From: a virus
DNA: 64,000 nt
Strand: one strand, 5' to 3'
IMG/VR virus record: IMGVR_UViG_3300009094_001034
Location: 1 to 64,000 of that record
This document shows positions 3,827 through 53,345 of the stretch, piece by piece. The notes under the pieces were generated by a model, which saw only the letters and a program-made list of their open reading frames with translations, did not search any database and was not told the DNA's origin. How positions within the stretch are numbered: the first letter of the stretch is position 1; each line of letters opens with the position of its first letter. The translations under genes and the position numbers were made by a program.

Positions 3827-4861
3827 GTGACAAAAAGTGCGCGGCAACACGTCATCGACGGGTTCCGCGAAGGGAGCGCGGTCGCAGCGGCACTCCGAGC
3901 AGACGCCGAATTTCTCGCAACGAGGATTCCGAAGGCGCTCCGACCGCTCGCGGTGCAGTTCTACGAAGATACGGCTGCTGCGATAGAGGGAAAGCGGATC
4001 GAGAAGACGGCGCCCATTCGAAGTGGGGAGCTGTTCGAGATGTTCGCGGCACAGGTTCGGATGATCGAGCCAGATGAAGCCATGGTGCGCGTCGACGGCG
4101 AAACGCGAGAGGCGGTGCGCGAGAAAATTCACAAGCTCAAGCGCGCCATCATGGATTGCCCGTTCGAGGCTGGCATCCCGAACATTGCCCGAGCGTATTA
4201 CCGCTTTCGTTTTCCCGAGGTCGTTCGTGGAGCGTGGGACCAGACGTACAGCTTGTACCTCGACATCGATGTGGAGTTCACGAGTCCAGAGGCCCTCTTT
4301 CGACAGGCGCTCTTGTACGAACTGTTCAAGGCGACCCCGCGCGATTACCTTCAGCGCATTCTTCAGGCGGATATCCTTGGAGATACGAATGTGCAGTACG
4401 TGTACGATCTGGCGCGCGAGCCCTCATTCGAGAGGTTTGTAGAAGCGACCACACTCCTCGAGAAGATCGGGGCGGCTCTATGGACAGACGAACGCGCGAG
4501 TTTTCTCAATCGGGTGTTTCACTACGACGTCCAGCCGGCCACGCTAGCGCACGCGCTCTTTGCGTGGACGTACATCATTGCGGCGCACGACCTGCACGAT
4601 GACGCCACGGAGAGCGACGCTTGGCCGCTTGTGTCCACGGAGTGCTTGACGCTCACTGAGAAGCTCGTTGCACTCGACGTGCTGAAGGAGCATGGCAAGA
4701 GCGTACTCCGCCCGCTCTTTCGTGTCCTGATGGCCATGGGGCAGCGCGAATCCTATTCAGTAGACCTCGGGGAGGTCATCGAGGATGCAAAGGTGAAGGC
4801 TCGGGATGAAGCACGGGCCATGACGCGGAGCGATGTCGCGATTAAAGCGATGGAGCCGTGA
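3827..4861 (+). CDS. Hypothetical alpha-helical protein
   Basis: Long ORF; GTG start after GGAG; start uncertain. Confidence 0.65.
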   Translation: MTKSARQHVIDGFREGSAVAAALRADAEFLATRIPKALRPLAVQFYEDTAAAIEGKRIEKTAPIRSGELFEMFAAQVRMIEPDEAMVRVDGETREAVREKIHKLKRAIMDCPFEAGIPNIARAYYRFRFPEVVRGAWDQTYSLYLDIDVEFTSPEALFRQALLYELFKATPRDYLQRILQADILGDTNVQYVYDLAREPSFERFVEATTLLEKIGAALWTDERASFLNRVFHYDVQPATLAHALFAWTYIIAAHDLHDDATESDAWPLVSTECLTLTEKLVALDVLKEHGKSVLRPLFRVLMAMGQRESYSVDLGEVIEDAKVKARDEARAMTRSDVAIKAMEP

Positions 4862-5336
4862 GCGCCTTCGTGCAGAGAGCATCCGCGTAGCGGTTCTTCG
4901 ACCGCGGAACGTGCATCGGTGTGACGTGGAGCTTGCCCGGCGCCTTCGTGAGAAGGATGCGGCGCTTCCCATCCGATGCAGGGATCACGTCGTGCGACAC
5001 GAGCCGCGCGATCTGGTACTGGATGCGCGCAAGGTGGGGCGCCTGCGAGGTGCGGTTCTTCCCGCGCAGCCACTCAGTGACGAACTTCGAATCCCCCTTC
5101 AGCGTGACGTGTTCATAGCCGGCTCCCGCCGCCCACGTAAGCGCGTGGAGGCAACCTTGCAGTTCGGCCACCATGGACGTGGCCGGCGAGACGAGCCCCG
5201 ACCCCTCCATGATCTTCGCGTGCCCGTGGCCTATGGCGACCCATCCCCAGGCGCCGCGCGATGCTGGGTAGAGCGAGTGTGTCACGCCGATGTTGCCGCG
5301 CACGCCGCCATCGAAGTAGATCGTGCAGTCGTTCAT
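4842..5336 (-). CDS. Ribonuclease HI family protein
   Basis: YFDGG, AE, GDS, HVPR..N..AD catalytic motifs. Confidence 0.85.
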   Translation of the reverse strand: MNDCTIYFDGGVRGNIGVTHSLYPASRGAWGWVAIGHGHAKIMEGSGLVSPATSMVAELQGCLHALTWAAGAGYEHVTLKGDSKFVTEWLRGKNRTSQAPHLARIQYQIARLVSHDVIPASDGKRRILLTKAPGKLHVTPMHVPRSKNRYADALCTKALTAPSL

Positions 5337-5368
5337 GCCCTGACCTCACCATGGAGGCCGGGGATTGG

Positions 5369-6718
5369 TCACGCAATTAGCTGCAGCGGTGCATGCATCA
5401 CATCGATCGATCGGAACTCGGTCGTCGTGCGGTCGAAGCGAAGAAGGACCTTCCCCGTGGGACCGTTCCGATTCTTTTTCACGTGCAGTTCTACCTCGCC
5501 AGGTCGATCACTCCGGTCGTTGTAGTAGTCGTCGCGGTAGAGCATCAGGACAACATCGGCGTCCTGCTCGATGGAGCCCGACTCGCGCAGGTCGGAGAGG
5601 TTCGGGATCTTGTTGTCGCGCGATTCGACACCGCGTGAGAGCTGCGACAGGCAGAGTATCGGCACATCGAGCTCGCGTGCGAGTGTCTTGAGTCCGCGGC
5701 TCATTTCGGATACTTCCTGGACGCGGTTGTGCGGGTTGTTGCCGGCCATGAGCTGCAGGTAGTCGATGACGAGGAAGTCGAGACCGCGTTCGAGCTTCAT
5801 GCGACGTGCTCGGGTTCGCAGATCCGCGAGCGAGAGACCGCTCCGATCGAAGATCGTGATGGGGAGCGTGTGCAGCCGTTCAATCGCGTCGACGACGCGC
5901 TGGCGTTCGGCATCTGAGAGCTGACCAGACCGGAGCTTCCACCCATCGACCTTCGCGGCGGTGCTGAGGATGCGCCGCACGAGTTGCTGCTTGCTCATCT
6001 CGAGCGAGAAGACGCCGACGTGCTTTCCTCCCGTCGCGATGTTCTGCGCGACATTGATGGCCAGAGCTGTCTTTCCGATCGAGGGCCGCGCGGCGAGGAT
6101 AACGAGGTCGGAACGCTCGATGCCGGCGAGCATCGTGTCGAGATCATGGAAGCCGGTCGAGAGGAAGCGCGACGTGGTTCCGTCGTCATCGGCCGCAGCG
6201 GCGAGGCCGTCGTACGTCTCATTGAAGACATCCCCGAGTGTCTCCATACGAAGCCGCCGATCGCGCGTGCGCAACTCCAACAGGATCGCTTCCGCACGGC
6301 TGTTTACCTCTGCCGGATCTGCGTCGGGCTGAAACGCGAGCGCGGAGATATCGGTGCCGACCGTGATCAGGCGTCGCTGATACGCCTTGCTATGAACGAT
6401 CTCCGCGTACTTCTCCGCGTGTGAGGCGGTCGGGACGAACTCGGTCAATTCGGCGATGGCGCTCTTACCGCCGACGTCCACGATCTCCTTCCGTTCTTCG
6501 AGCAGATTGCAGACCGTGAGGAGGTCGACGGGTGTGTGGCGTCGGTGGAGATCCAGCATGGCCTGGTAGATCGTGCGATGGGCGACCACGTAGAAGTCAT
6601 CTCGGTCGAGGATCTCGGAGACCAACGTGATGCATTCCGGCTCCAGGAGAATGGATCCCAAGACACACTTTTCAGCTTCGAGATTTTGCGGTGGGATCAT
6701 TCCTTTAGGCGACGGCAT
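5369..6718 (-). CDS. dnaB: Replicative DNA helicase
   Basis: PPQNLEAE N-terminus, AARPSIGKT Walker A, IDYLQL, LSQLSR, SDLRESGSIEQDAD, KNRNG. Confidence 0.97.
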   Translation of the reverse strand: MPSPKGMIPPQNLEAEKCVLGSILLEPECITLVSEILDRDDFYVVAHRTIYQAMLDLHRRHTPVDLLTVCNLLEERKEIVDVGGKSAIAELTEFVPTASHAEKYAEIVHSKAYQRRLITVGTDISALAFQPDADPAEVNSRAEAILLELRTRDRRLRMETLGDVFNETYDGLAAAADDDGTTSRFLSTGFHDLDTMLAGIERSDLVILAARPSIGKTALAINVAQNIATGGKHVGVFSLEMSKQQLVRRILSTAAKVDGWKLRSGQLSDAERQRVVDAIERLHTLPITIFDRSGLSLADLRTRARRMKLERGLDFLVIDYLQLMAGNNPHNRVQEVSEMSRGLKTLARELDVPILCLSQLSRGVESRDNKIPNLSDLRESGSIEQDADVVLMLYRDDYYNDRSDRPGEVELHVKKNRNGPTGKVLLRFDRTTTEFRSIDVMHAPLQLIA

Positions 6719-8975: not shown

Positions 8976-9312
8976 GTGGACCTCCCGCACAACCCTGCCG
9001 CGGGCTGACGGCAGCGGTCGAGGCGTCCAGACTGCGGAGCGACGGTGGTCAGGCTGACGAAGCCGAGTATCGACAGGAACGTTGTCAGCGCGCACTCACC
9101 CGCAAGCGGGGCGACGCGTCCACGCCAGGGACAGTTCTACGGCTGCCGCACCAGTGGTGAGGTGCGAGGAGCTATCGGCGGGAGAATCCCTACTGAAGCA
9201 TTAGGGATTGTGTCAGGGGAATGCGTGTGCATTCCCAGTCCGCGCGAGAAGGTAGCCACCGTCCTACATCAAAACCGAAGGAAGTCCAGTCAGATGGTCT
9301 CCTTCGGCTTGC

Positions 9313-9355
9313 GAATGTTACGCAACACGGTGCATGGTCGGAATGTCACGCAACA
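9313..9355. promoter_or_regulatory. Direct-repeat putative operator in divergent intergenic region
   Basis: GAATGTTACGCAACA (9313) and GAATGTCACGCAACA (9341). Confidence 0.45.
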
Positions 9356-9371
9356 TACCCCCCCAATCCTC

Positions 9372-9815
9372 ATGTCCCTCTCCAAAACCGACGAAGCGAT
9401 CAATCGCGGCGAACCAATCAGGCTCCACCGCTCGGAGTTCCTCGAGAAGCCGGCCGAGTACATCATTCAGGCTGATGACCGCGACGCGATGATTGAGCTA
9501 TGCCGCTACCAGCAGGTCACGCATGCAATCATCCCGCTTCGCCTCCACGAAGGGTCGGTCTTTCGCGCGCTCTACCGATACGACATGAACAAAGAGGAAA
9601 TCCGGCGCCTTGCCTCAGAACAGATGGATCGTCTGAATGGCCGAGAGCGACCGGTAGATGCTCTTCCTGCCTGTAGCGACGAGGATGTTGAAGTTGGCCA
9701 GGTGATTACCATCCGACCCTACAAACTATCGGAGTACATGAAGGACATGAGATATGGCCCAGTGATCGGGAAGATCAGCTTCAAGAACGATGGCCAGCAA
9801 GCGGAAGCTGCGTAA
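9372..9815 (+). CDS. Hypothetical protein
   Basis: Start MSLSKTD with C/A-rich leader. Confidence 0.6.
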   Translation: MSLSKTDEAINRGEPIRLHRSEFLEKPAEYIIQADDRDAMIELCRYQQVTHAIIPLRLHEGSVFRALYRYDMNKEEIRRLASEQMDRLNGRERPVDALPACSDEDVEVGQVITIRPYKLSEYMKDMRYGPVIGKISFKNDGQQAEAA

Positions 9816-19112: not shown

Positions 19113-19961
19113 ATGGCAGATGTAAAGATGCCGGCCGAGAAGCCGCAGCACGAAACCCTCACCACCGCATACGCGAAGGAGTACGTAGGCGTTCCATTCC
19201 GTCTGTTGGGTTCGTCGTGGGAGCGCTTTAAATCAGATTTCGACTTCAAGGACGAGAACGTCTTCGCGATGCGCATCGATGCGTCACTCCCCGTCACTGC
19301 GCGCGTTCAGCGCGACGGCAAGGAGGTCTCGAACTTCGCGGTGTACGACGAGGATGCGAAGGAGTACATCGAGGCCGAGTACCACGACTATGAGACGTTC
19401 GAGATCACACGTGCGGACGGTGCAAAGTTCCGCGGCCGGATCGTCGACCACACGCTCCGTTCATGGGACGACGGCAACTTCCAACTCCTCACGTCGGAGG
19501 GATGGCAGACCGTCGACTACAACTCTCTCGCAGCATCGAAGGAAGAGTCGAAGGAGCGTATCCGCCACGAGAGCCGCCTCAAGGTCGTTCACTTCCAGCC
19601 TGTGTCATTCATGGAACCGCTGACGCTTCGGAAGAAAACCGTGCAGCGTGCGAAACTCGAACTCACGAAGACCGCGTATGAGGCGCTCCTACAACGGGCG
19701 AACACTCTCGCGAAGGCCGATGTCGACCCGAAGAACTACGTGTACGCGTTCACGTACGTCGAAGCCGACAAGCAATACGTGATCGCTGAGGAGGACTACC
19801 GGAAGCTGACGGACGCCGAGCGCGAAACGGCTGCAAAGGAAGATGAAAGCGCGGCATCAAGCTCCATCGATGCGCTCTCTCCGCCGAGCGGTGGGGGCCG
19901 CGCCTCGGATTTCCCGTTCCCCGAGAAAGATCAGATCCCCGTCGACGAAATCCCGTTCTAG
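19113..19961 (+). CDS. Putative ssDNA-binding/recombination protein
   Basis: Acidic SSB-type C-terminal tail IPVDEIPF. Confidence 0.55.
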   Translation: MADVKMPAEKPQHETLTTAYAKEYVGVPFRLLGSSWERFKSDFDFKDENVFAMRIDASLPVTARVQRDGKEVSNFAVYDEDAKEYIEAEYHDYETFEITRADGAKFRGRIVDHTLRSWDDGNFQLLTSEGWQTVDYNSLAASKEESKERIRHESRLKVVHFQPVSFMEPLTLRKKTVQRAKLELTKTAYEALLQRANTLAKADVDPKNYVYAFTYVEADKQYVIAEEDYRKLTDAERETAAKEDESAASSSIDALSPPSGGGRASDFPFPEKDQIPVDEIPF

Positions 19962-19979
19962 CCACTCACCACATTCACC

Positions 19980-20258
19980 ATGTCTGTACGTGCGAAGTTC
20001 GTCCTCAACAGCTACGAAGCAATGACGCAGCCCCAGTCTCGCCAGAAGGATGATGGGAGTTGGGAGCAGTTGCCACCCAAGGAGATGCGCACGCTCGTTC
20101 TGCGCCCGGTCTACTCTGACAAGCCGGAGTCAGAGAACAAGAAGTTTTGGGATGCAACGCCCACTGGCGAGATTCGTCTCGGCACTGTGAACCCCGCAGC
20201 GTGGGAGCAGTTCGAGATCGGAAAGGAATACTACGTCGACTTCACGCCCGCGGAGTAG
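19980..20258 (+). CDS. Conserved phage hypothetical protein
   Basis: MSVRAKF...NKKFWDATPTG...GKEYYVDFTPAE pattern typical of phage proteins. Confidence 0.7.
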   Translation: MSVRAKFVLNSYEAMTQPQSRQKDDGSWEQLPPKEMRTLVLRPVYSDKPESENKKFWDATPTGEIRLGTVNPAAWEQFEIGKEYYVDFTPAE

Positions 20259-20284
20259 TAACTCCCTACGCACCTTTCAATTTT

Positions 20285-21012
20285 GGGAACGAACAGAGGA
20301 ACATCGCGACCTCTCACCATCCGAACGCTGAAAGTCCGCTTCATGCGGTGTGTCCATCGAGGGGCGTAAGCCTTCGACCGGGGTCAATTACACCCGGTCA
20401 CTCGAAGGGATCTAGGCCAGTAGGTGAATACAACGGTACACAACCCAGTCGCGTCTATCGCGTGCTGCCGCCCCGGCGTCGGGGGCACACCCGCCGAGGA
20501 AACTAGCTGTGCGAATCCGGGAGAGTTGTGCGGGTGAGAGGTCTCGGTGTTTCTCGGCACGGGTCTCGATGCGTACGCAACGAGGACGTTAGACCACGAT
20601 GAGGGCGCGCCTGATTCGCGGTTCGGGGGGATCGGTGGGAAGCGAAGGCGTCCACCACCCGTGCTCGTGTAGAGGTAGCCCGTAGAGAGCGGAGGCGGAC
20701 TGTAAATCCGCTGGCCCTGTTGACCCCTGTAGGTGCGACTCCTCCCCTCTACACCGTTCGTTCCCCGGCTCGCGGTTCCGCGTCAGGCGTCTCCACTGCT
20801 GTCCCTTTGCAGATAGCAACGACGCCTGGGGCGGGCCCTCGAAGGCCGCACCGTCCTCTGTCGCAGCAATGCGAGCACCGCAGGTACTAACGCCCACAAG
20901 GCTACAGTCATGCGGTGTCGGAAGAACGACGAGCAAGCTAACGCCCGCTCGCTCGGGAAAACGGGAGAACAATCTGACTGGCCCCGCCGCTCTGGTGGGG
21001 CCACTGGTCAGA
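20285..21012 (+). ncRNA. Large structured ncRNA with nested tRNA (GOLLD-like candidate)
   Basis: Long-range helices 20285-20294/20756-20765, 20296-20318/20533-20555, 20556-20564/20657-20665; many hairpins; no credible ORF. Confidence 0.7.
20669..20753 (+). tRNA. tRNA-Tyr (GTA), atypical D arm and T loop, CCA not encoded
   Basis: Acceptor GTAGAGG/CCTCTAC plus A discriminator; anticodon arm GCGGA-CTGTAAA-TCCGC; long variable arm. Confidence 0.8.
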
Positions 21013-21043
21013 CCGCACACATCACCATTCCCATTCACACCCT

Positions 21044-21346
21044 ATGGCTCTGCATCCGCTGGGGGATTACGTCCTCCTCAAACCGATCCGCGAAACCCAT
21101 ACCGCTTCCGGGCTCGTCATCCCCGACACGATCAAGGATCGGAAGTCGGACCGCGGCGAAGTGATCTCCGTAGGACCGGGCAAGGTACAGGAAGACGGCA
21201 CGCGCAGCCCGATGGAGGTGAAGGCGGGCGACCGCGTCATTTTTTCCAAGTACGCATCTGACGAGATCGAAGTTGATGGTGAAGAACTGCTCATCATTCA
21301 AATGCACGACGTAAAGGGAATCATCGTCCCTGCCAACGCCCGATGA
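21044..21346 (+). CDS. groES: Co-chaperonin GroES
   Basis: LHPLGDYVLL, TASGLVIPD, VGPG, VKAGDRV. Confidence 0.95.
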   Translation: MALHPLGDYVLLKPIRETHTASGLVIPDTIKDRKSDRGEVISVGPGKVQEDGTRSPMEVKAGDRVIFSKYASDEIEVDGEELLIIQMHDVKGIIVPANAR

Positions 21347-21510: not shown

Positions 21511-23100
21511 ATGGACGCAAAGGACATTACGTACGGCGACGAGGCGCGTGCAAAACTCGCCTCCGGCATCAGCAAACTAGCTCGTGCAGTAGCAGTGACG
21601 ATCGGTCCGAAAGGCCGAAACGTTCTTCTCCCGAGCCCATTCGGCGCTCCGAAAATCGTGAACGATGGCGTAACGATCGCACGGGAAGTCGAACTCGAAG
21701 ACCCGCTGGAGAAGATGGGCGCGGATCTTGTGAAGGACGTTGCGTCGAGGACGAACGACATCGCGGGCGACGGGACCACCACCGCAACGGTCCTCGCGGA
21801 CGCAATGGTGCGCTCCGGGCTGCGGAACCTCGCGGCCGGCTCCAACCCGATGGCGATGCGGACGGGAATCGAGCAGGCGGTCGAACAGGTCGTGCAGAAA
21901 CTCGACGCGATGTCGCAGAAGGTTGAAGGCAAGATGATCGAGCACGTGGCCACGATCTCGTCCCAGGACCCTGAGACCGGAAGGATGATCGCCGAGGCAA
22001 TCGAGAAGATCGGAACGGGACCGATCACCACGGAGAACTCGGATACCCGGGGCCTCACGTTGGAGATCAAGGAAGGGATGCAGTTCGACAGCGGCTACAT
22101 CTCGGCACACATGGTGACCGACGAGGAGCGCTCGACTGCGACGTACGAGAACGTGCACATCCTCGCGTTCGACGGGAAAGTGACCGGCCCGCAGGAGGTG
22201 ATCCCGATTCTCGAAGGCTGCATGAAAGCGGGGATCAAGGAACTGCTCCTCATCGTCGAGGGTGTCGAGGGAGACGCCCTTCCCACACTCGTCGTGAACA
22301 AACTCCGTGGTGTATTCCACTCGGTGGCGGTGCGTGCGCCCGGCTACGGCGATCGCCGAACCGCTATGCTGCAGGACATCGCAGTGCTCACGGGAGGAAC
22401 AGCGGTCTCTCCCGCGCTCGGAATGGATATCTCGAAGTTCGAGCTCGGCTGGCTGGGCCGAGCGTCCAAGGTGATCGTGACAAAGGACGCGACGACCATC
22501 GTGGGCGGCAAGGGCGAGAAGCTTGCGATCGAGAACCGCGTCGCGCAGATCCGGAAGGAACTGGAGGATGCGAAGACGGACTTCGAGAAAGAGAAACTCG
22601 AGGAGCGGCTCGCGAAGATCGCCGGGGGGGTCGCCGTGATCAAGGTGGGCGCCGCCACCGAGATCGAGCTCAAGGAAAAGAAACTTCGTATCGAGGACGC
22701 CATCAACGCGACCCGCGCGGCAGTGGCGGAGGGCGTCGTCGCAGGAGGCGGCTACGCACTGCTCCTCGCTCGTGAGGCCATCGACCGCAAGGGGACGGAC
22801 GACCAGTCCACGGGACGCCGGATCGTCTTCACCGCGCTCGATGCGCCGGCGCGTCAGATCGCGGAGAACGCGGGCCAGGACGGAGCGGTCGTGGTCGCGG
22901 AGTCCATCCGCCTCAAGGCTGGCTACAACGCTGCGACGGACGAGTATGTCGATCTCGTGAAAGCGGGCGTCATCGATCCGTGCCTCGTTACGAAGTCCGC
23001 TCTCCAGCACGCCGCGTCGGTCGCAGCCTCATTCCTCACCTGCGAGGCGGCGCTGTCGCCGAAACCGGAGAAGCCCCAGTCAGACGCGCTGCACGCGTGA
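21511..23100 (+). CDS. groEL: Chaperonin GroEL
   Basis: GPKGRN, NDGVTIA, GDGTTT, APGYGDRR, RIEDAINATRAA; lacks GGM tail. Confidence 0.97.
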   Translation: MDAKDITYGDEARAKLASGISKLARAVAVTIGPKGRNVLLPSPFGAPKIVNDGVTIAREVELEDPLEKMGADLVKDVASRTNDIAGDGTTTATVLADAMVRSGLRNLAAGSNPMAMRTGIEQAVEQVVQKLDAMSQKVEGKMIEHVATISSQDPETGRMIAEAIEKIGTGPITTENSDTRGLTLEIKEGMQFDSGYISAHMVTDEERSTATYENVHILAFDGKVTGPQEVIPILEGCMKAGIKELLLIVEGVEGDALPTLVVNKLRGVFHSVAVRAPGYGDRRTAMLQDIAVLTGGTAVSPALGMDISKFELGWLGRASKVIVTKDATTIVGGKGEKLAIENRVAQIRKELEDAKTDFEKEKLEERLAKIAGGVAVIKVGAATEIELKEKKLRIEDAINATRAAVAEGVVAGGGYALLLAREAIDRKGTDDQSTGRRIVFTALDAPARQIAENAGQDGAVVVAESIRLKAGYNAATDEYVDLVKAGVIDPCLVTKSALQHAASVAASFLTCEAALSPKPEKPQSDALHA

Positions 23101-51771: not shown

Positions 51772-53310
51772 CTATCCGTTGAAGGAGAACGTTTCCATTT
51801 CTTGAACCTGCATCGTGTCTTCGATCACTTCGAGCAAGTAAGCCACGGCATCCGGCACGTCGTCGTGCTTCGCGAGAGGGAACTGCGTGAGCTCGTCGAC
51901 CGCCGCGGTCGACACGGTGTCGCAGATGCGAACGCGCCACTGCTCGAATTGCGGCTGCCAGCGGATCATCCGGCGCACCTTGTCCTTGTCCGGCCGGACG
52001 CCCACGGTGGGGACGTACGATGCGCCGCGCGCAGAAGCGTCGTCCACCATCTGCTTCAGCGCTTCTTGGTACGCGACGACCTCGATCCCTACGCGCGTGT
52101 AGTCCCACTTCTGGTGCTGCTCGAGCAGCAGGCGTACTTGCTGCGGCGCGAGGATGTGTTCGCGGATGACGTCCCAGATATAGATGGTGCCGTCTTCGGC
52201 CCAGCCGCCGGTGGCGAGGACGAAGTAGTCGGCGCCGTCCTTCTGCGAAATCGCGACGTCCGCCGCACCGAAACGAACGAGGTCTTCGAGCTTGATGGAG
52301 GCATCGCCATCCAGGATGAGGTTCGAGTCGCGAATGAACTTCGGCCGCTTGCGGTCCGCGCTCTCCACCCAGCTTCGCTTGATGACCGTGGAGCCTTCGG
52401 GGATGGGGTCGTTCTGGTATTCAGTCTGGAAGGCGAAGGACCCGATGGCCTTCTTCACCTTCATGAGCGCGACGTACGGGAAGCGGTCCGGCCAGAGCGT
52501 GGCCGTTCCCTCGTCCATCGCTGCGCGGTGCTTCGCGTAGAAGGCGTCGGCCGCCTCCTCGCCGCCTTGCGTCCAGGCGGCGTCCCACTGCTCCCAGAGG
52601 TCCGGGCGGTTCGGTTCCGAGAGGATCGCTTGGCGGTAGAAGACCCGGTACGCGCCCGTCTTCTTCTTCCGGAGGATCAGCGCGTCCTGGTGAAGCGTGG
52701 TGCCCACCATGAGGAGGCGCGAGTGCGCCGGGTCGCGCATCGGGATGACCGAGGCGTTGAACCATCGCTCGACCTTCTGGCGCTGGTGTTCGGTCTGAAC
52801 GGAGTCGTCATCCTCGACGTCATCGGTGATGACGAGTTGCGGACGCCACTGCTTGAAGCGCCAGCCGCGCGTCGAAGATCCGCGGCCGGCGGACCGGATA
52901 CAGACGTCGGTCGTGGTGATCAGCTTCTTCTCAGTCGTGTTCTTGAGGATGTCGCCGAAGACGGCGCGCAAGCGCTCGTTCTTCTCCATCTCCTCGTTGA
53001 TCGAGAAGAGGAGCGTCTTTGCCTGGTCGCCGGTCTCTGAGAACAGAACGATGAAGTGGTACTTCTGGAAGTAGACGCACCAGAGGACGTAGGCGAGCGA
53101 GATGACGGTGGACTTCGCGTGGCCTCGCGGAAGGATGAAGATGCCGTCTTCGGTGTGCTCGGTGAGTTCCGCAATCAGTTCCCGGTGGAAGTCGGGAATC
53201 TGCGCAGGGAAGTACGCGGCGAGGAAGTACTTGCAGAAGAACGCGAAGTTCCGCTCTGCCTTCCTCCGCGCCGCAGCGATGACGACCCGAGACTGCGGGG
53301 CAGTGGACGT
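51772..53310 (-). CDS. terL: Terminase large subunit (non-canonical start, see findings)
   Basis: Frame open from 53340; Walker A PRGHAKST upstream of first ATG; TDDVED, VGT, EYQNDP, HDDVPDA. Confidence 0.9.
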   Translation of the reverse strand, partial: TSTAPQSRVVIAAARRKAERNFAFFCKYFLAAYFPAQIPDFHRELIAELTEHTEDGIFILPRGHAKSTVISLAYVLWCVYFQKYHFIVLFSETGDQAKTLLFSINEEMEKNERLRAVFGDILKNTTEKKLITTTDVCIRSAGRGSSTRGWRFKQWRPQLVITDDVEDDDSVQTEHQRQKVERWFNASVIPMRDPAHSRLLMVGTTLHQDALILRKKKTGAYRVFYRQAILSEPNRPDLWEQWDAAWTQGGEEAADAFYAKHRAAMDEGTATLWPDRFPYVALMKVKKAIGSFAFQTEYQNDPIPEGSTVIKRSWVESADRKRPKFIRDSNLILDGDASIKLEDLVRFGAADVAISQKDGADYFVLATGGWAEDGTIYIWDVIREHILAPQQVRLLLEQHQKWDYTRVGIEVVAYQEALKQMVDDASARGASYVPTVGVRPDKDKVRRMIRWQPQFEQWRVRICDTVSTAAVDELTQFPLAKHDDVPDAVAYLLEVIEDTMQVQEMETFSFNG

Positions 53311-53345
53311 GGGGTGGGGTGGTGAATGCTCCTTCGAGCGTCACG

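Follow-up and report, generated by a model that had tools for sequence, protein, structure and literature searches.

A probable large structured RNA upstream of phage groES-groEL, with a tRNA-Tyr as a predicted arm of its closed four-way junction

Very large RNAs such as GOLLD and ROOL are carried by phages next to or around tRNA genes, for reasons that, to our knowledge, nobody has explained. The locus described here raises the question of whether another such RNA, either a divergent relative of GOLLD or a new one, surrounds a tRNA-Tyr gene located directly upstream of the chaperonin genes of a phage. The source record, IMG/VR provirus IMGVR_UViG_3300009094_001034, comprises 97,173 bases with 62% G+C, and its first 64 kb constitute the window that we analysed. 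A preliminary description, made from the letters of the window, had proposed that positions 20285-21012 encode an ornate RNA of ~730 nt with the tRNA nested inside it. Our analysis indicates that the feature is probably a tRNA-bearing structured RNA, represented by a single example, whose predicted fold is laid out like that of GOLLD; the two RNAs are probably unrelated. The record carries genes for an integrase, DnaB, a portal protein, a tape-measure protein, the large terminase (TerL), RadC and an SNF2-methylase, and no host genes were seen at either end of its 97,173 bases.

The whole feature is contained in a 785-nt gap on the + strand (20259..21043), whose left boundary is the stop codon of a 92-aa ORF (19980..20258, + strand). 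The G+C content of this ORF at the three codon positions (0.57/0.41/0.75) is typical of coding sequence in this genome; the ORF matches phrog_6978 (E=5e-11) and has a homolog with 52% identity in an unrelated low-GC phage (L002), where no such RNA was found. To the right, the gap is followed by groES (21044-21346; Pfam Cpn10, 3e-26) and groEL (21511-23100; Pfam Cpn60, 4e-58), so the feature indeed lies upstream of groES-groEL, and a RuvC-like gene is located beyond groEL. The 92-aa ORF, the tRNA, groES, groEL and the RuvC-like gene are all encoded on the + strand, and the locus is surrounded by exonuclease, RuvC, primase and helicase genes. The gap itself is non-coding: the G+C content of its ORFs is flat, ~0.6 at all three codon positions in every frame, as opposed to 0.65/0.42/0.77 for real genes here, and no ORF within 20259-21043 matched a Pfam or PHROG family, which together rule out hidden protein genes. 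The gap sequence is present in a single copy in the 97-kb record, and further sizeable gaps are present elsewhere in it.

A C/A-rich, G-poor stretch just before groES (21013-21043, CACATCACCATTCCCATTCACACCCT) helps to set the right end of the RNA at ~21012. A similar leader precedes the 92-aa ORF (19961-19979, CCACTCACCACATTCACC), and neither of the two contains a Shine-Dalgarno sequence. The presence of a CIRCE operator before groES was considered and rejected. Neither a sigma-70-like promoter nor a U-tract terminator was found inside the gap, the sigma-70 consensus being possibly not that of the host, and this result fits co-transcription of the gap with the operon.

The tRNA at the centre of the feature was identified by ARAGORN as a tRNA-Tyr with anticodon GUA (20669..20755, + strand), in agreement with the preliminary description, and is the only tRNA that the program found in the 97 kb. 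It adopts a class II cloverleaf with a long variable arm, a G1-C72 pair and A73. Its 3' end reads ACC followed by a G, which is the first base of the P1 3' strand, while most of its relatives encode CCA. Its T-loop, UGCGACU, has a G at position 55, where psi55 is normally found, and its D-loop lacks GG; both characteristics are common to all of the aligned relatives. Since the canonical forms are UUCRA and GG, these deviations account for the low score of the tRNA in Rfam, where it falls below the gathering threshold and its best match within the clan is tRNA-Sec, with 26.9 bits. Using a pattern based on the anticodon loop and the T-loop, we identified related tRNAs in 22 IMG/VR viral contigs and, using a tighter pattern, in 4 metagenome contigs, i.e., in 26 other loci (L016-L037, L039-L042), most of them within phage tRNA arrays. 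In an alignment of 17 sequences, comprising relatives and the tRNA of the window, compensatory changes were found in 19 of the 24 pairs. Based on this covariation and on the ARAGORN call, we consider the sequence a true tRNA gene, belonging to a conserved phage tRNA-Tyr type.

The minimum-energy fold of the region reproduces the junction described from the sequence, with two large domains and the tRNA as its arms. The enclosing helix P1 is formed by a 5' strand, GGGAACGAAC (20285..20294), and a 3' strand, GTTCGTTCCC (20756..20765), which begins right after the ACC of the tRNA; all 10 of the 10 pairs are Watson-Crick, and the helix is predicted with P=1.0 in every flank context. Domain D1 (20296..20555, 260 nt) is closed by the helix 20296-20318/20533-20555 (P ~1.0), whose 23 positions include 20 Watson-Crick pairs, 2 G-U pairs and 1 C-U mismatch, 22 pairs in all, as the preliminary description had noted in outline. 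No inverted repeat of the 64-kb window is longer than this one, which lies inside a gap that represents 1.2% of the window. The interior of D1, with a GUAA-capped hairpin (20362-20373, loop 20366-69) and a 7-bp hairpin with a 10-nt loop (20376-20399), is poorly defined (P 0.3-0.9). Domain D2 (20556..20665, 110 nt) follows D1 with no linker; its 9-bp closing helix (20556-64/20657-65, P=0.95), present where it had been proposed, encloses three hairpins, and the domain ends 1 nt before the acceptor stem of the tRNA, which is lengthened to 9 bp by the leader bases at -1 and -2. P1, D1, D2 and the acceptor stem thus constitute a predicted four-way junction with branches of 10, 11, 9 and 9 bp, respectively, in whose loop only A20295, C20666 and C20755 are unpaired. 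With three unpaired bases and linkers nearly absent, P1 could stack on the acceptor and T stems, and D1 on D2. The core helices were predicted with P>=0.94 at folded lengths of 510, 785, 1,100 and 1,500 nt.

The loop of the D1 hairpin at 20376-20399 includes the sequence UUACA, which contains the Tyr codon UAC and is complementary to the UGUAA of the anticodon loop (20700-20708). Additionally, positions 20377-87 of D1 are complementary to the variable arm of the tRNA (20720-30) at 10 of 11 positions. These complementarities could correspond to an alternative or a kissing pairing, or to chance. An exact 11-nt direct repeat, UCAUGCGGUGU, is located in D1 (20341-20351) and in the 3' hairpin region (20908-20918); the hypothesis of a duplication between D1 and the 3' domain was rejected, as their alignment score was equal to the shuffle mean and no wider duplication was detected.

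Downstream of P1, a region of predicted hairpins (20766..20972, + strand) comprises hairpins at 20783-20829, 20861-20874 (GCAA-capped, loop 20866-69), 20875-20918 and 20930-20955, with P 0.7-1.0; its helices include 20783-91/20821-29 and 20875-82/20911-17. Both GNRA loops of the feature, GUAA in D1 and GCAA here, agree with the hairpin caps first noticed. The region is followed by a terminal hairpin (20973..21012; 7+9 bp, loop GCUCU, P 0.9-1.0), which ends 31 nt before the start codon of groES, has no U-tract and is not called by the terminator scan. The complementarities on which a multi-stem 3' domain had been proposed are present in the sequence, but, in our reading of the window comparison, the helix density of 20766-20972 is about that of the genome background, so this domain does not stand out from chance; the minimum-energy fold makes no use of one of the proposed stems, GCTCGC/GCGAGC, although both of its strands are there. 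The 3' hairpin region is therefore not counted here as established, with the exception of the terminal hairpin, and the size of ~730 nt is not established either. A weak match to RsmY at 20869-21004 (15.3 bits, E=0.68), which owes its score to the terminal hairpin and to the GGA-containing stretches CGGAAGAAC and GGGAAAACGGGAGAAC, is probably due to chance.

Is this structure more than what a G+C-rich phage genome yields by itself? Against dinucleotide shuffles, the total folding energy of the region had a z-score of -5.65 on the + strand and of -3.06 on the - strand. When compared with 162 windows of the same length from its own genome and corrected for G+C content, the same energy ranked 10th, which is ordinary; the shuffle z-score is thus misleading here, and several other tests were used. 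According to our own estimates, 785 nt should contain ~0.5 perfect 10-bp pairings and the 97-kb record ~0.65 near-perfect repeats of 23 positions, and enclosing helices of 9-11 bp are also found in the predicted folds of 20 other tRNA-Tyr loci. Because of this rank, of the expected number of 10-bp pairings and of the enclosing helices found elsewhere, neither the energy nor the length of P1 is taken as evidence, which resides instead in the architecture.

The region contains seven uninterrupted helices of at least 9 bp, a number reached by 1 of 156 background windows. Among 164 windows of the own-genome background, the shortest branch of a junction attained a maximum of 5 bp for four-way and 7 bp for three-way junctions. 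Likewise, when the flanks were dinucleotide-shuffled 164 times and the tRNA was kept, the best four-way junction had a shortest branch of 4 bp and the best three-way junction one of 7 bp, and no shuffle placed the tRNA in a junction with partner helices longer than 7 bp. In 129 of these 164 shuffles the acceptor stem was not predicted to form, while with the native flanks it is predicted with P=1.0. At other tRNA-Tyr loci, the enclosing helices of at least 7 bp are all located at least 21 nt from the 3' end of the tRNA, as compared with a distance of 0 for P1, and the four helices of the present junction adjoin one another and the tRNA within 0-1 nt. As a predicted structure, the junction is far beyond chance. 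The helix count, the junction branches, the flank shuffles, the D1 repeat and the abutment of P1 on the tRNA lead us to consider the 481-nt core (20285-20765) as probably a selected structure. To this extent the structure statistics support the proposal of a new large RNA, for the core and not for the full ~730 nt.

On the - strand, the mirror image of the fold has nearly the same stability, so the structure alone fixes neither the strand nor the choice between an RNA and palindromes at the DNA level, and the counts of G-U pairs versus A-C mismatches over the entire fold do not decide the strand. In the four junction helices, on the other hand, there are 3 G-U pairs and zero A-C mismatches on the + strand. 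Since, additionally, one arm of the junction is a + strand RNA gene and the neighbouring genes are all on the + strand, we infer that the feature is to be read as a + strand RNA.

The comparison with known RNA families argues against the first of the two identities that had been proposed, i.e., a divergent GOLLD. No Rfam family reached its gathering score in the window, and at E<=10 the 1.7-kb region around the feature yielded only tRNA-Sec, HIV-1_SD, RsmY and two chance matches to snoRNAs. The models of RNase P RNA, tmRNA, group I/II introns, small ribozymes and OLE had no match in this 1.7-kb region; RNase P RNA, with which the feature has only the 8-mer GAAAGUCC in common, was ruled out. 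The GOLLD model (RF02032, gathering score 150 bits) had no match at E<=10 in the 1.7-kb region or in the 97-kb record, and the ROOL model (RF03087, 99.1 bits) had none at E<=10 in the region and none in the full record, while as positive controls the former scored 164.7 bits on L020 and the latter 294.4 bits on L025, two of the loci with related tRNAs. The motifs of the GOLLD consensus 3' domain (GUGGAUAA, GUAAUCUCAG, CUCGCAAGG and UCAAAAG) are also absent from both strands of 20200-21100. Judged by these models and motifs, the feature is not a member of GOLLD or ROOL.

The likeness to GOLLD concerns the general design. As GOLLD does, the feature occurs in a phage or prophage (here an IMG/VR provirus), spans several hundred nt in multiple domains and is associated with a tRNA, with the tRNA-Tyr located between D1-D2 and the 3' hairpins. 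In GOLLD, tRNAs sometimes sit in the linker, between the 5' and the 3' parts (bioRxiv 10.1101/2024.12.08.627333). This linker is loose, whereas here the tRNA is predicted to be built into a closed four-way junction as one of its arms; moreover, it is the lone tRNA of the record instead of part of a tRNA island, the G+C content is 62% and there is a single example. ROOL is likewise a large RNA of phages and prophages near tRNA genes, but its model had no match here and the predicted fold is unrelated. Two of the loci with related tRNAs carry one of these RNAs. In L020, a GOLLD RNA (9091-9643, - strand, 164.7 bits) contains a tRNA at 9507-9577, and a tRNA-Tyr of the type found in the window is located 18 nt past its 3' end; in L025, a ROOL RNA (4165-5448, 294 bits) lies ~600 nt downstream of a tRNA-Tyr gene that matches our pattern.

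No relative of the feature other than of its tRNA was found. The blastn search of the feature against GenBank phages and plasmids returned no homolog of the non-tRNA parts, and neither did the search through the neighbouring 282-aa protein, which covered viral, genome and metagenome contigs, plasmids and phages; a set of 5.8 billion proteins contained 8 homologs of this protein. The flanks of the 22 viral and 4 metagenome loci anchored on the tRNA have no similarity to those of the window, and in the sequence collections a pattern for the D1 loop gave chance matches only and a pattern for the two P1 strands gave none. The same holds for the chaperonin and terminase genes: the GroEL relatives in IMG/VR belong to low-GC phages with no tRNA upstream, TerL has one match there, with 35% identity, and P0018 has no match there.

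TerL (51772-53340, - strand) has no Pfam match at E<=0.01 and one relative that is 91% identical, the rest being at most 50% identical and nearly all from Logan assemblies; among 1,212 sampled genomes, which belonged to two GTDB phyla selected by way of GroEL loci and came from three draws, two of them giving the same sample, only relatives with 29-36% identity were found. The phage GroEL (21511-23100) has no GGM tail, and its only close relatives are 85% and 78% identical. It is ~55-58% identical to the cellular GroELs of many phyla and therefore gives no clue to the host. The closest phages are represented by a 287-kb NCBI contig (P0002, P0012, P0131) and a 7-kb ENA contig (P0013). The phage lineage is very thinly sampled.

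How might such a locus work? The explanation that we place first, and to which we give slightly less than an even chance, is that a single long folded RNA is made from the + strand, in which the tRNA-Tyr is an arm of the closed junction and the flanking domains act in cis as a scaffold for its folding and processing. The gap would be part of a transcript that also covers the adjacent early, replication and chaperonin genes. The P1 5' strand, at the beginning of the leader, would pair with the trailer directly after the ACC of the tRNA, with D1 and D2 filling the space between. The non-tRNA domains would prevent the G+C-rich tRNA from pairing wrongly with the rest of the transcript; the loss of the predicted acceptor stem in most flank shuffles suggests that self-contained domains shield the tRNA fold. 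The domains might also mark cut sites, for RNase P at 20668/20669 and, at 20753-20756, for a 3' endonuclease or for trimming and CCA repair, and an RNase III cut would be possible in the 22-bp stem of D1. Such cuts would also part the upstream message from that of groES-groEL. Once the mature tRNA-Tyr had been released, P1 would still hold the 5' piece (P1-D1-D2) and the 3' piece together, and this structured by-product may itself be functional.

Precedents exist for parts of this scheme. The leader-trailer processing stems of bacterial rRNA operons and the RNase III sites of phages also rely on long-range pairing around a stable RNA. The stem of D1, with its 22 pairs over 23 positions, G-U pairs and one mismatch, offers a mostly Watson-Crick duplex of at least 20 bp, about two helical turns, as in an RNase III-type stem, and is a candidate for cleavage; in contrast to the rRNA stems, the enclosed product here is a tRNA plus two extra domains, and the enclosing stem, P1, has only 10 bp. 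Phage T4 provides, in its species 1 and 2 RNAs, an example of structured RNAs other than tRNAs that share a precursor with phage tRNAs; these are far smaller and are not known to wrap around a tRNA. Several facts weigh against a processing scaffold. It is proposed from a single sequence, nothing homologous to D1, D2 or the 3' domain having turned up in the collections searched, and a leader of ~370 nt is far beyond the need of simple insulation or of a processing stem. Furthermore, by the substrate rules of RNase P, a leader-trailer helix that extends the acceptor stem is expected to hinder rather than help the enzyme.

The great size of D1-D2 argues for some function, while the ill-defined interior of D1 and the lack of relatives call for caution. 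It is conceivable, if rather unlikely, that the feature represents a new class of large phage RNAs, with the tRNA as a load-bearing arm and with two halves that remain paired through P1 after processing and are functional; were this true, the function could be the timing of tRNA-Tyr release or a higher-order assembly like those of ROOL and of GOLLD, which forms a homo-oligomeric nanocage. We also judge it unlikely that the feature is a stand-alone ornate RNA acting in trans, of a new class comparable to GOLLD and ROOL, with the tRNA as cargo or structural arm and with D1-D2 and the 3' domains as the functional body, e.g., for oligomeric assembly or for binding a host or phage factor. A layout of the GOLLD type, with a 5' part, a linker tRNA and a 3' part (bioRxiv 10.1101/2024.12.08.627333; L020), would agree with such a role, as would the size of 481-730 nt, the GNRA loops, the tight fit of the junction, a leader much longer than processing requires and the complementarity of the D1 hairpin to the anticodon loop (UUACA/UGUAA) and to the variable arm (10/11). 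These complementarities are, nevertheless, short and were found post hoc, the interior of D1 is ill-defined and the 3' domain is not beyond chance, and no family, promoter or terminator of its own was found for an RNA acting in trans. That it is instead a highly divergent member of GOLLD or ROOL has a probability close to negligible: the prophage setting, the nested tRNA, the similar size and the tRNA-Tyr of the same type 18 nt after GOLLD in L020 are outweighed by models that are silent at E<=10 here while scoring 164.7 and 294.4 bits on their controls, and by the absence of all the GOLLD motifs checked.

A simpler possibility is that of an ordinary phage tRNA gene in a long spacer, whose helices are chance or generic features of G+C-rich sequence, along with a stabilising or terminator-like hairpin before groES. 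The unremarkable energy against own-genome windows, the estimated frequencies of ~0.5 per 785 nt for the 10-bp pairing and ~0.65 per 97 kb for the 23-position repeat, the 9-11 bp enclosing helices in the folds of unrelated tRNA loci and the other sizeable gaps of the record are all compatible with it. We consider it quite improbable nonetheless, as none of the 164 background windows and none of the 164 flank shuffles came close to the junction, the inverted repeat that is the longest in the 64 kb falls in 1.2% of the window, and the four helices adjoin each other and the tRNA within 0-1 nt. Still less credence is given to an element acting at the DNA level, whether a cruciform or set of hairpins for replication, recombination or packaging, or a MITE-type palindromic insertion in the case of D1. 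P1 is perfectly Watson-Crick and the D1 stem nearly so, the mirrored - strand fold is about as stable, and the neighbours are DNA-metabolism genes; however, neither iterons nor significant direct repeats were found, the record holds a single copy, and D1 and P1 are not flanked by target-site duplications. Furthermore, the arms of the junction include the acceptor stem of an RNA gene, and its helices have G-U pairs on the + strand without A-C mismatches. Whichever role applies, a tRNA built into the predicted fold would offer a simple, testable system for the control of tRNA maturation, the protection of a tRNA fold or the use of a tRNA as a structural part.

With respect to the tRNA content of the locus, no tmRNA was found by ARAGORN at default thresholds; extra degenerate tRNAs and a permuted tmRNA appeared only when the thresholds were lowered to 75-85%, and they were rejected, the tag peptide being implausible. 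The relatives of the tRNA-Tyr of the window are themselves often missed by ARAGORN. The phage tRNA-Tyr type to which it belongs, with the invariant T-loop UGCGACU, is widespread and scores at or below the Rfam tRNA threshold, and that such a non-canonical type is often missed by standard tRNA finders matters for the annotation of phage tRNA sets.
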